From the sequence record OZ035772.1: a stretch of 64,000 bases of DNA. The stretch is one strand, 5' to 3'. Of the stretch, positions 31,445-34,435 are shown one piece after another; within the stretch, counting starts at the first letter, position 1; each line of letters begins with the position of its first letter. Under the pieces are notes generated by a model, which did not search any database, was not told the DNA's origin, and was given only the letters and a program-made list of their open reading frames with translations. The stretch comes from Felixounavirus LF82P3. Position numbers and translations under genes: made by a program.

Positions 31445-31715
31445 AGAAAAGTGGGAGATTTTACCATTAGTCAGTGAAGGAGGTAATGGTTGTGAAATGT
31501 ACATGATACGTGGTCATGTTCCAGAGCCAATTGCACTTGAGATGGTAAACAACTTTACAGATGGTTCTTACAAAGACTTAGGCGAACCAACTGTCAAGCA
31601 ACAATGGGTTAAACCTGTACCAGACAGCACAGGTAACTGTAGTGTACTTTATCACGTTGTAGACCCTGCAAAATGCAAATCTGCAATGGCAGTAACAAAC
31701 GTAACTTTTGATTGA
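31437..31715 (+). CDS. Hypothetical protein
   Basis: ORF. Confidence 0.3.
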   Translation: MAKEKWEILPLVSEGGNGCEMYMIRGHVPEPIALEMVNNFTDGSYKDLGEPTVKQQWVKPVPDSTGNCSVLYHVVDPAKCKSAMAVTNVTFD

Positions 31716-32608
31716 GAGAGAAAACTATGAAAACATCTATCCGTGTTACAGTTCATTCACCAACTAAAGGAACTCATGAAGAAGAGTTTAACATCATCCA
31801 ATTTCCTTCTGGTGAGATTGGTGGACACTTTTCGCCAGAGTTTGTTGATTTCACTGCTTATGCAGCATCATCCATCAACAATGTGATTATGATTGTAAAA
31901 GGTTATGATAAGGATACATTGTTTGCTGTGGCACTTGCTAAAGAAGCAATTGATGATTTAATTCCTCATGATTATGCTTTAAAGACTGTCATCTTTTACT
32001 ACTTACCAAATGCACGTTATGACCGTCACATGTTTAAAGGCGACGCAGCAGCTTTAAAGGTTTTTGCTAAACAGGTAAATGCAATGGGATTTGGTGCAGT
32101 CTGTGCAGTTGACCCTCACAGTTACGTTCCAGATAACCTGTTTAACTGCTTCCAGAGTATTCCTCAAAAGGAGATTGCAGTCCACTATGCAAATGACCCA
32201 CTGGTTGATTACTTAGTAGCCCCAGATGCAGGTGCTGCTAAGAAGGTTGCAGAGACCGCTAAAGAGGTGGATAAACCATATATCACAATGTCTAAGGTGC
32301 GTAACCTTAAGACTGGTGAAATTACTGGTATGCGAATCCTTGATGATGTTGATTTGACAGATAAAACCGTCATGATTCTGGATGATATCTGTGATGGTGG
32401 TCGAACCTTCATAGAAGCAGCTAAGCATCTTCGTGAAGCAGGTGCAAAACGTGTGGAACTCTATGTAACACATGGTATCTTCTCTAAAGATGTTGAAAAC
32501 CTTCTTGACAATGGCATTGACCACATCTACACTACAAACTCTTTAGGGGAAGCTAAAGACCGTGGCTTAACACATTATGGTCAAGTTACTGTAGCAAACC
32601 TTGATTGA
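31712..32608 (+). CDS. Ribose-phosphate pyrophosphokinase homolog (Prs-like; candidate ADPR-PP synthetase Adps of an NAD+ reconstitution pathway)
   Basis: PRT-type motif VMILDDICDGGRT, DPH motif; adjacent to Nampt-like gene. Confidence 0.8.
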   Translation: MREKTMKTSIRVTVHSPTKGTHEEEFNIIQFPSGEIGGHFSPEFVDFTAYAASSINNVIMIVKGYDKDTLFAVALAKEAIDDLIPHDYALKTVIFYYLPNARYDRHMFKGDAAALKVFAKQVNAMGFGAVCAVDPHSYVPDNLFNCFQSIPQKEIAVHYANDPLVDYLVAPDAGAAKKVAETAKEVDKPYITMSKVRNLKTGEITGMRILDDVDLTDKTVMILDDICDGGRTFIEAAKHLREAGAKRVELYVTHGIFSKDVENLLDNGIDHIYTTNSLGEAKDRGLTHYGQVTVANLD

Positions 32609-32616
32609 AACTTTAT

Positions 32617-32639
32617 AGGGGCTTAAAAGCCCCATTTTG
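32617..32639 (+). terminator. Rho-independent terminator (weak T-tract)
   Basis: GGGGCTT / AAGCCCC stem then ATTTT. Confidence 0.45.
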
Positions 32640-32653
32640 AGAGAGATTAAAAG

Positions 32654-34435
32654 ATGACTAAATCACTTTATGCAGTACCAGCAGGTTTAAATGCAGATGC
32701 TTACAAATCTGGTCATGTTTACCAGTATCCTAGCGCAACAGAGTACTTGATGTTCAATCTGACACCACGTAACGACAAATGGTTTAACAGCCCCTTAGCA
32801 ATTGACGGTGTAGTAGCTTTTGGTATTCAACGTTTTGTTAAAGATTACTTGATAGACCACTGGAATGCCACTTTCTTTGAACGTGATAAAAAAGAAGCAA
32901 TTGACGAAATCTTAGAAGTCATGAATGGTGTTCTGGGTAAAGATGCTATAGGTCGAGAGCATTGGGAAGCACTTCACGACTTAGGCTATCTACCAGTTGA
33001 AGTATACGCTGTAGAAGAAGGCACAGTTGTCCCTATGCGTGTTCCGATGATTGTTTTCCAGAACACTGTTTCAGGTTTCCATTGGGTAGCAGGTTATCTG
33101 GAAGATGCTTTCTCTGCTGAGATTTGGAAGGCTTGTACCATTGCAACTATTGCATTGCACTACAAACGTATCTGTAAGAAGTGGGCTGACCTTACTTGTG
33201 ACAACGACTTGCATTTACCTTATCAGTGCCATGACTTTGCTATGCGTGGTATGTCCGGCTTTACTGATGACGCATTTAACGCTGTAGGCCACTTAACCAG
33301 CTTTAAAGGAACTGATAGCTTTCCTGCTGTGTATACGGCTAAACGAATCTATGGACAGTCCTACCCAATCTCTGATATTGGTAGCTCTGTACCAGCCACT
33401 GAGCACTCTGTAATGTGTGCAAACATTGCTTGGGAAGGTGGTAATGAGTTGATTGAAGAAGAAAGACGCTTTAAAGGTGAGTTACAAACCTTCCGTCGTT
33501 TCTTAACAGAAACTTACCCAACGGGTATTGCAAGTATTGTTTCAGATACTTATAACTTCTGGAGAACTGTGTCAGAAATCTTACCAGCACTCCGTAAAGA
33601 AATTATGGAACGTGACGGTAAGCTGGTAATTCGCCCTGACTCTGGAGACCCTGTACATATTGTCACAGGTTACAAAGCAATCCACTTAGAGTGTGCTAAA
33701 AAGGCTTATTACGAGCACCTAAGCAAGCTAGAGGCAAGTGATACAATGCTGAACTCTGTCCTGAACATGAAGCTTGAAAACATTAACTATGGTATTGCTG
33801 GATGGCTACTGTCAGAAGGCTACGAAATGGTTGTTGACAGAGAAGACTTTGAAGTTGCTGATACGGTGATGTTGAAGAATGCTTATATGGTTGGTTCTGC
33901 AAACGTTGTAACACGTCCTGTAGCTGAGATTGATGGGGCTATTAAGACACTGTATAACATCTTTGGAGGAACTATCAACTCTAAAGGTTTTAAAGTACTG
34001 GATGAGCATATCGGGCTTATTTATGGCGACTCTATCACGTTGGAACGTGCAAACGAAATACTGAAGCGTTTGTATGAAATGGGTTTTGCAAGCTCTAACG
34101 TAGTGTTTGGTGTAGGTTCTTACACTTACCAGTACATGACTCGTGACACCTTTGCATTTGCTGTCAAAGCAACTCTTGCAAGCATTGGTGGTAAAGAGAT
34201 TATGCTTGCAAAAGACCCTAAAACAGATAGTGGTGTTAAGAAGTCTGCTTTTGGTGGTGTAGCACCTATGTGGGATGGTGAAAATCTGAAAGCTGTAGAT
34301 GGCTATGGGTTCCAGAGCTTTGCAGATGCACTTGAACACCCAGCTTGTGCTTTGCGTCTAGTCTTTAGCGACTCTGAGCAGTTCGGTTACACAACTCTTG
34401 GTGATATTCGAAATAATATTGACAAGCAGCTTTAA
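32654..34435 (+). CDS. Nicotinamide phosphoribosyltransferase homolog (Nampt/NadV-like; candidate Namat)
   Basis: SVPATEHS, VSDTYN, IRPDSGDP match recalled Nampt motifs SVPAAEHS, VSDSYD, IRPDSGNP. Confidence 0.85.
   Translation: MTKSLYAVPAGLNADAYKSGHVYQYPSATEYLMFNLTPRNDKWFNSPLAIDGVVAFGIQRFVKDYLIDHWNATFFERDKKEAIDEILEVMNGVLGKDAIGREHWEALHDLGYLPVEVYAVEEGTVVPMRVPMIVFQNTVSGFHWVAGYLEDAFSAEIWKACTIATIALHYKRICKKWADLTCDNDLHLPYQCHDFAMRGMSGFTDDAFNAVGHLTSFKGTDSFPAVYTAKRIYGQSYPISDIGSSVPATEHSVMCANIAWEGGNELIEEERRFKGELQTFRRFLTETYPTGIASIVSDTYNFWRTVSEILPALRKEIMERDGKLVIRPDSGDPVHIVTGYKAIHLECAKKAYYEHLSKLEASDTMLNSVLNMKLENINYGIAGWLLSEGYEMVVDREDFEVADTVMLKNAYMVGSANVVTRPVAEIDGAIKTLYNIFGGTINSKGFKVLDEHIGLIYGDSITLERANEILKRLYEMGFASSNVVFGVGSYTYQYMTRDTFAFAVKATLASIGGKEIMLAKDPKTDSGVKKSAFGGVAPMWDGENLKAVDGYGFQSFADALEHPACALRLVFSDSEQFGYTTLGDIRNNIDKQL

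Follow-up and report, generated by a model that had tools for sequence, protein, structure and literature searches.

A 64,000-nucleotide stretch of Felixounavirus DNA (sequence record OZ035772.1, LF82P3), here called the window, carries two adjacent genes, adps and namat, that very probably form the operon for NAD+ (nicotinamide adenine dinucleotide) reconstitution pathway 1 (NARP1) of a Felixounavirus infecting E. coli. NARP1, which consists of Adps and Namat, was discovered in genes 79–80 of phage Bas63 (JohannRWettstein) (Osterman et al., bioRxiv 10.1101/2024.02.11.579819), and the pair in the window is the orthologue of this founding operon. This follows from protein identity, with Namat 98% identical to Bas63_0080 across all 593 residues and Adps 78% identical to Bas63_0079 across all 293, and from a shared gene order, which in Bas63 (MZ501086), itself a Felixounavirus, runs nrdG, small open reading frames (ORFs), gene 79, gene 80, small ORFs, rIIA and rIIB. 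As NARP1 has already been published in this very phage genus, the pair is a known system and not a new kind of system.

NAD+ depletion is among the commonest outcomes of bacterial antiviral defence, and NARP1 is a phage answer to it by new chemistry, with ADP-ribose pyrophosphate (ADPR-PP) as the intermediate and NAD+ made without nicotinamide mononucleotide (NMN). In the mechanism proposed here, SIR2-HerA, DSR1/2, type I Thoeris, SPARSA, Kongming and other defences cleave NAD+ into ADP-ribose (ADPR) plus nicotinamide. Adps would move the β,γ-pyrophosphate of ATP onto the 1″ hydroxyl on ADPR's terminal ribose, yielding ADPR-PP and AMP, and Namat, by the chemistry of Nampt, would then displace pyrophosphate (PPi) with nicotinamide to give NAD+ directly, requiring neither NMN nor an adenylyltransferase. 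The net reaction would be ADPR + nicotinamide + ATP → NAD+ + AMP + PPi, enabling the phage to replicate despite an NAD+-depleting defence. For the allele in the window this scheme is drawn by orthology. Purified SpbetaL1 homologues convert ADPR and ATP to ADPR-PP, and ADPR-PP and nicotinamide to NAD+; Bas63-infected cells contain ADPR-PP; and Bas63 without genes 79–80 is sensitive to SIR2-HerA, with deeper NAD+ loss (Osterman et al., bioRxiv 10.1101/2024.02.11.579819).

An earlier note, made from the sequence of the window alone, had recognised a Prs-like gene directly upstream of a Nampt-like gene. Both ORFs are confirmed, and are co-oriented on the + strand with a 45-nt spacer (ORF list), the adjacent arrangement of adps and namat that characterises NARP1; in the published survey, 97% of Adps-clade genes have a Namat within 10 genes (bioRxiv 10.1101/2024.02.11.579819). 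The note had begun the first gene at 31712, and here the ORF stands and the start probably does not. The TTG at 31712, the start of the mechanically called ORF, lies 15 nt upstream of an ATG at 31727 and shares nucleotides with the stop codon of the gene before it. This ATG is the most likely start, giving a protein of 293 aa, because it is preceded by the ribosome-binding sequence GAGAGAG and because the Bas63 orthologue is annotated with the equivalent start. The assignment of the two proteins to the Prs and Nampt folds agrees with Pfam, which finds Pribosyltran (E 8e-12) and Pribosyl_synth (E 5e-10) in the former, and NAPRTase (E 7e-35) and NAMPT_N (E 2e-5) in the latter. The Nampt motifs that the note had quoted are all present in Namat: PATEHS (aa 247–252), VSDTYN (aa 296–301) and IRPDSGDP (aa 326–333).

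By megablast, the 2.7-kb adps–namat stretch is 100% identical at the nucleotide level to LF82P1 and 99.9% to LF82P3, and 90–97% identical in more than 200 further Felixounavirus records from phages of E. coli, Salmonella and Shigella, so the pair is not a chance pattern. Nearly all annotated relatives name the two genes “ribose-phosphate pyrophosphokinase” and “nicotinamide phosphoribosyltransferase”, with a few given as “hypothetical protein” or “unknown”. In LF82P1 the counterpart of the window begins at ~21.2 kb and runs to where the record ends, and a further ~190 bases of the window match the beginning of the Bas63 record; the part of LF82P1 that it does not cover is the terminase-to-tail-fibre block only.

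The active site of Adps was mapped by alignment to ICP1 Adps, in a numbering that reproduces the residues of the published analysis (PMC13586617). Residues F35 (the Phe contributed by the neighbouring protomer), R97, H131, D167, K190, D219/D220, C222, D223 and F228 match ADPR and ATP contacts of the ICP1 enzyme, so that the hairpin Lys, the ADPR-contacting Arg, His and Asp, and the PP loop are all in place, with differences at three peripheral contacts (see below). The ICP1 counterpart of K190 is essential, as K185A kills activity, and the PP loop, which engages the ATP donor, is kept among Adps homologues (PMC13586617). Three motifs, DPHS, K-x-R-(D/N)-x-x-T and DD(I/L)(C/S)D(G/A)G..F, are common to six aligned Adps-clade proteins (from the window, Bas63, ICP1, 4MG, Gary and a Cronobacter chromosome), the first of them reading DVHS or DAHS in two of five further homologues. 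The equivalents in E. coli Prs are DLHA, DKRRPRA and DDMIDTGGTL.

Similarity scores point the same way. By BLASTP, Adps scores 115–120 bits against the verified Adps proteins of ICP1 and Gary, compared with 62 bits against E. coli Prs. Among the NCBIfam models, it just passes the broad subfamily model TIGR01251 (122 bits, cut-off 113; ICP1 Adps 98, E. coli Prs 423) and misses every Prs equivalog cut-off, its best score being 104.5 bits (cut-off 296), compared with 232–533 for E. coli Prs on these models; ICP1 Adps likewise falls under all of them. This combination explains the misleading database names of adps. The comparison with true Prs that the earlier note had proposed sets the protein nearer to the ICP1 and Gary enzymes, and membership of the phage Adps clade, and not of cellular Prs, is supported by pairwise scores and motif comparison, with one canonical Prs (E. 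coli) as the reference.

For Namat, the distinction from Nampt lies in a “selectivity clamp”, described in SpbetaL1 Namat, in which a loop (SCL) and a helix (SCH) bind the adenine of ADPR-PP; the SCH motif GSXφXφXφTRD sets Namat apart from Nampt, and the third SCL residue is Arg, Lys or Tyr, the residue after Lys or Tyr taking over the stacking, as modelled in Bas63 (PMC12774641). The window protein carries both elements (Table 1). Its SCL has the same Lys-Trp pair as that of Bas63 (PRSDKWF), and its SCH fits the motif, with Met at the third φ position where Asn or Val is usual. The corresponding segment reads GSYTYQYVTRD in ICP1 and GSFTTQYTTRD in 4MG, against GGGLLQQSDRD in the Nampt-type protein of Vibrio phage D527. 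The catalytic core is also intact: the catalytic histidine is kept between Namat and Nampt (PMC12774641), residues D15, Y17, F195, R198, D221, H251, R327 and D329 are invariant in 47 homologues and align to SpbetaL1 residues, and G458-D459 is conserved as well.

Structure comparison, the check that the earlier note had suggested for this protein, leads to Namat from both sides. The best sequence relatives of solved structure are the Namat entries 9w5w and 9w5x (E 6e-128), and an AlphaFold2 model built from the 47 homologues (predicted local distance difference test score, pLDDT, 93.9) finds the same two entries as its top Foldseek matches (E 1e-53, TM 0.95), ahead of Haemophilus NadV and human NAMPT. 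Identity is 37–39% to SpbetaL1 Namat (Foldseek) and 46% to ICP1 Namat. NCBIfam, which parts Adps from Prs, fails as a discriminator at this point: the window Namat lies above the cut-off of NF006629 (“nicotinate phosphoribosyltransferase”), and since ICP1 Namat, of the verified clade, passes too, this model does not separate Namat from Nampt, both of which match it.

Table 1. Coordinates of the adps–namat operon, its functional elements and associated features in the window
Feature	Position	Strand	Size or residues	Basis or remark
Two small ORFs	30929..31715	+	171 aa (30929–31444), 92 aa (31437–31715)	overlap each other and the adps ORF
Terminator-like hairpin + U tract (upstream)	30889..30911	+		scan, fold
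adps, Prs-fold ADP-ribose pyrophosphokinase (by orthology)	31727..32608	+	293 aa	ORF list, Bas63 orthologue, Pfam, bit scores
Adps Lys190 codon	32294..32296	+		equivalent of catalytic Lys185 of ICP1 Adps, β-hairpin SKVRNLKT
Adps-type PP loop DDICDGGRTF	32381..32410	+	aa 219–228	alignments; DDMIDTGGTL in canonical Prs
G+C-rich hairpin GGGGCT-taaa-AGCCCC in adps–namat spacer	32618..32633	+		fold −12.6 kcal/mol, z = −3.1
namat, Nampt-fold nicotinamide ADP-ribose transferase (by orthology)	32654..34435	+	593 aa	ORF list, Bas63 orthologue, AlphaFold2 model, Foldseek
Namat SCL PRNDKWF	32765..32785	+	aa 38–44	K42 at third position; W43 predicted to stack on adenine
PATEHS with conserved catalytic His251 of Nampt/Namat core	33392..33409	+		alignments
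Namat inserted α/β subdomain	33671..33934	+	~aa 340–427, ~85 aa	alignment gap, model
Namat SCH signature GSYTYQYMTRD	34115..34147	+	aa 488–498	fits GSXφXφXφTRD
Terminator-like hairpin + U tract (downstream)	34447..34470	+		12 nt past namat stop; fold −16.6 kcal/mol, z = −3.1
Macro-domain protein	41919..42704	+	261 aa	Pfam Macro PF01661, 32.4 bits against cut-off 22

A more familiar reading of the same two folds would be classical salvage, in which the Prs-like enzyme makes phosphoribosyl pyrophosphate (PRPP), the Nampt-like enzyme makes NMN, and host NadR, or PncC followed by NadD and NadE, completes NAD+. Database annotations and the Pfam and NCBIfam names, including the NF006629 match, fit this scheme, and in vitro, without ADPR-PP, SpbetaL1 Namat can turn PRPP into NMN (bioRxiv 10.1101/2024.02.11.579819, PMC12774641). 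The NF006629 match is uninformative, however, being common to ICP1 Namat, and the low score of the Prs-like protein against E. coli Prs, its failure at every equivalog cut-off, and the Namat-specific adenine clamp that Nampt lacks all speak against classical salvage. The SpbetaL1 enzymes do so too: Adps, assayed with ribose-5-phosphate or ADPR plus ATP, was named an ADPR-PP synthetase, and Namat offered both donors made NAD+ as its sole product (bioRxiv 10.1101/2024.02.11.579819). Moreover, Bas63 overcomes SIR2-HerA even in E. coli lacking pncC and nadR (Osterman et al.), so that for Bas63 genetics rules classical salvage out.

The earlier note had also seen no NMN adenylyltransferase (NMNAT) in the window and had proposed searching the remainder of the genome, and this picture extends to the whole of LF82P1 and the whole of Bas63: among the six-frame ORFs of all three sequences, phmmer --max, queried with the NadR and NadD proteins of E. 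coli, found no NMNAT (best E 2.6), and E. coli Prs, the control query in the same search, found the Prs-like gene at 7e-14. No nucleotidyltransferase domain was found by Pfam in 39 ORFs of the window, of which 10 surround the pair and the other 29 lie elsewhere. Across phages, 773 records contain NadR-like genes, with no Felixounavirus among the 30 matches listed; the second to twenty-ninth of these are from phage genomes of 105–378 kb, such as T5-like, Vibrio and Klebsiella phages. Because no NMNAT was found, and because of the Bas63 result in the host lacking nadR and pncC, classical salvage is very unlikely. The note's proposal of an ADPR → ADPR-PP → NAD+ pathway, by comparison, is supported by orthology to the tested Bas63 operon, by the Adps and Namat signatures, and by the lack of an NMNAT in the genome.

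What the analysis of the window itself establishes is the presence of the genes and their orthology to the tested Bas63 operon, the residues and motifs specific to each family, the fold, and the negative NMNAT search. For orthologues, work on the enzymes of SpbetaL1, ICP1 and DyoEdafos has established the chemistry, and deletion of genes 79–80 from Bas63 has shown the anti-defence phenotype. Several points weigh against extending these results to the window as a NARP1 operon. The biochemistry was done on the SpbetaL1, ICP1 and DyoEdafos proteins, and the evidence from a Felixounavirus, Bas63, is genetic and metabolomic. Namat-type enzymes keep an NMN-forming activity with PRPP in vitro (SpbetaL1; Osterman et al., PMC12774641). 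Three ligand-contact positions of ICP1 Adps differ, F92 being replaced by M102, A218/A219/S220 by G225/R226/T227, and F223 by E230; Bas63 Adps carries the same three differences (M102, G-R-T and E230), which are thus a property of the genus and not of the window. Finally, the N-terminal domain of the window Adps (aa 1–180) is an allele only 68% identical to that of the tested Bas63 enzyme. By analogy, the proteins of the window, notably this Adps allele, would nevertheless be expected to behave like the tested orthologues.

The divergence of Adps is confined to a mosaic patch of ~540 nt at the 5′ end of the gene (31727–32270), with 57–80% nucleotide identity to Bas63 compared with ~95% in its flanks. 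Within this patch synonymous divergence (dS) is saturated and the ratio of non-synonymous to synonymous divergence (dN/dS) is 0.14, which argues for recombination with an old allele, and on the same grounds positive selection on the divergent N-terminus was rejected. The pattern indicates that two old alleles of the Adps N-terminal domain exist in Felixounaviruses and have been swapped by recombination. It could be asked whether the window allele has altered its acceptor specificity, for example towards a modified ADPR, such that the operon would not be equivalent to that of Bas63; the extent of divergence over the first ~180 codons, and the origin of the adenine-binding residues of ICP1 Adps in the N-terminal domain (PMC13586617), would lend themselves to this idea. 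Such a change is highly improbable, as the mapped ligand-contacting residues are all identical between the two Felixounavirus alleles, the dN/dS value implies purifying selection on both, and the window type is the commoner of the two in the genus, with ~154 records against ~91 for the type of the tested Bas63 allele.

A further question concerns the purpose of the pathway. The pair might serve general NAD+ boosting, recycling ADPR from ordinary NAD+ consumption, with escape from defence as a by-product. The phage operon sits among nucleotide-metabolism genes (nrdA/B/D/G), homologous pairs are found in bacterial chromosomes, including one in Cronobacter beside a divergent NrtR-type regulator and outside any phage context, and a housekeeping role for bacterial NARP1 has been raised by Osterman et al. 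This reading implies the same chemistry, however, and differs in selective purpose, not in mechanism, and the reported phenotype of deleting genes 79–80 from Bas63 is a loss of infectivity on SIR2-HerA cells; as the main role of the pair it is unlikely, and a NARP1 operon acting against NAD+-depleting defences is preferred.

On the Cronobacter malonaticus chromosome (locus L015, 4216–7491), an adps-like gene (285 aa) and a namat-like gene (496 aa) are divergent from the NrtR-type regulator, which has Nudix and WHD_NrtR domains, and no phage genes lie nearby. Chromosomal homologues of Namat, Adps or both occur in Klebsiella, Phytobacter, Kosakonia and Superficieibacter. The single Cronobacter locus points to a bacterial operon, similar to NARP1, for recycling NAD+ under the control of an NrtR-type regulator.

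In the window, two terminator-like hairpins with U tracts bracket four abutting or overlapping ORFs, encoding proteins of 171 aa and 92 aa, Adps and Namat. The upstream hairpin is the probable 5′ boundary of this four-gene unit, and the downstream hairpin probably marks the 3′ end of the transcription unit. The two small ORFs are possibly co-transcribed with adps and namat. Both belong to PHROGs families of unknown function and have no Pfam domain above cut-off, the 171-aa ORF having a weak HNH-like match. A role for them as NARP1 accessories was considered and found unsupported: the 92-aa ORF is confined to the Ounavirinae, and homologues of the 171-aa ORF, in Phapecoctavirus and Justusliebigvirus phages, are far from the NARP1 genes of those phages. 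The adps–namat spacer (32609–32653) holds no gene here, and in several relatives, for example VpaE1_ev78 (locus L016, 1506–1997), it is occupied by a 163-aa HNH homing endonuclease. A search around the operon for an NAD+ riboswitch or another known RNA element gave none, the only Rfam match being a sub-threshold one attributable to chance.

Within Namat, the ~85-aa inserted subdomain has no counterpart in Nampt or in the Namat proteins of SpbetaL1 and ICP1, in alignments that include D527. It is confidently modelled, with pLDDT values of 93–97 within the whole protein and 87 when modelled alone, and Foldseek found no fold relative of it in the PDB (best E 0.32). The site of insertion is a hot spot: among the homologues examined, it is occupied by 20–25 aa in the shortest, mainly bacterial chromosomal ones, and by 29–103 aa in the rest, and at least two kinds of longer insert, unrelated to each other, occur there. 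A second, shorter insertion relative to SpbetaL1, of ~15 aa, spans aa 258–275. A weaker reading takes the insert and the alternative Adps N-terminal alleles as possible adaptations to host factors that target NARP1.

Vibrio phage Gary has an extended system, NARP1-AP, with the gene order Adps–Adpp–Namat, in which Adpp is an ADPR-1″-phosphate phosphatase (bioRxiv 10.64898/2026.01.28.702374); ADPR-1″-phosphate is the product of aRES-type defences. Neither of the known accessory genes, Macro-domain Adpp and RyR-domain RyDEP, was found in the ORFs flanking the window operon by Pfam and PHROGs, and the adps–namat spacer is empty, which leaves no Macro gene within the operon. A Macro-domain gene, which the earlier note had not picked up, is nevertheless present ~7.5 kb (~15 genes) downstream of namat. 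Its product is 27% identical to Gary Adpp over the whole of Adpp (E 2e-13), the Macro domain being N-terminal and followed by a ~100-aa C-terminal extension that Adpp lacks and that has no family match; the Bas63 counterpart is annotated as a “putative phosphatase”. As the published NARP1-AP survey scanned only two genes on either side of NARP1 (bioRxiv 10.64898/2026.01.28.702374), a copy at this distance would have escaped it.

On sequence grounds, the Macro protein is a candidate accessory enzyme. Felixounaviruses might thus run a dispersed, three-enzyme NARP1-AP, in which the Macro protein would turn ADPR-1″-phosphate or another ADPR derivative into ADPR for Adps and Namat, extending the counter-defence beyond the two-gene operon, if true; this is conceivable, though doubtful. 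In Thalassavirus Gary and Pakpunavirus K5, homologues of the Macro gene do form part of the NARP1 operon or adjoin it. The family is, however, spread over 2850 phage records; T4-like phages are among these, and there no NARP1 gene overlaps or adjoins any of the matches listed. The family profile matches BT1257 and OARD1/TARG1 better than Poa1p; because of this breadth and this preference, the link to NARP1 is put forward only as a hypothesis. In phage 4MG (Seunavirus; locus L008, 4256–4789), an uncharacterised 177-aa ORF is embedded in NARP1, between adps and namat, and the Macro gene is elsewhere in the genome; this ORF was considered as an Adpp and set aside, since no Pfam family matches it and it does not resemble Gary Adpp.

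Other features of the window, all on the + strand, lie apart from the operon. A SegE-like GIY-YIG homing endonuclease ORF (20223–20720) stands before another (20965–21720) that encodes a nucleotide pyrophosphohydrolase domain of the MazG/PRA-PH type. Between 43145 and 46279, an intergenic cassette of ~85 nt occurs four times between small genes, each copy with a conserved hairpin, GGGGAGGGAATGACCTTCCCC, followed by a ribosome-binding site and an ATG; positions 43619 and 44091 hold copies of a second, ~60-nt repeat. As in other Felixounaviruses, 26 tRNA genes are clustered (58364–63582), a few small ORFs being scattered among them, and the gene directly upstream of the cluster (56783–58198) encodes a 471-aa protein that combines DUF2828 and DUF7788 with a weak VWA domain.

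The value of the present analysis is corrective: more than 200 Felixounavirus records with the old labels should read adps and namat. Among the mislabelled records are phages under consideration as therapeutics against E. coli and Salmonella, and under the corrected names these genes predict that their phages resist defences of the SIR2, TIR and DSR types. Only three leads go further than the literature: the Adpp-like Macro gene, which is unlinked to the operon, the Namat insert, which is uncharacterised, and the pair of Adps alleles.

Set beside other phage NAD+ systems, the window differs from NARP3 (PnuC with a NadR-like protein) in having no NadR homologue, no separate search having been made for PnuC. 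With NARP2 of Vibrio phage KVP40 (Nampt with a bifunctional NMNAT) it shares a nicotinamide-using enzyme of the Nampt fold and the restoration of NAD+, but NARP2 requires an NMNAT and PRPP, the former being absent from the searches of the window, LF82P1 and Bas63, and the start of the window SCH (GSYTYQY) contrasts with the Nampt-type GGGLLQQ of D527, a Vibrio phage of KVP40 size. Compared with NARP1-AP of Gary, the window genome has homologues of all three enzymes, with the Macro gene placed outside the operon and its product longer at the C-terminus.

At the level of the proteins, Adps shares its fold and catalytic core with canonical Prs and departs from it in its equivalog scores, its PP loop and hairpin, and an apparently truncated C-terminus, being 22 aa shorter than E. 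coli Prs and, in the alignment, without its last helix region; the C-terminal α11–α12 regulatory/filament module of PRPS, whose loss goes with Adps, may thus be missing. With ICP1 Adps, to which it is ~37% identical, it has in common the type of PP loop, the catalytic Lys and the ADPR contacts, and it differs in M102 for F92, GRT for AAS, a longer N-terminus and a short C-terminal tail that, by alignment only, ICP1 Adps lacks. Namat has the fold and catalytic core of Nampt and NadV, the adenine clamp being found on the Namat side only; it resembles SpbetaL1 Namat (9w5w/9w5x) in fold, catalytic residues and clamp signature, and differs from it in its two insertions and in an SCL with Lys-Trp where SpbetaL1 uses Arg40. 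The closest counterpart is the NARP1 operon of Bas63, which has an additional small gene after namat and, in the N-terminal half of Adps, the other of two anciently diverged alleles; the two otherwise agree in genus, two-gene order and flanking genes, in the length of Namat, inserted subdomain included, in an Adps C-terminal domain that is 96% identical, and in the residues of the SCL/SCH clamp and the mapped Adps active site, which are the same in both.

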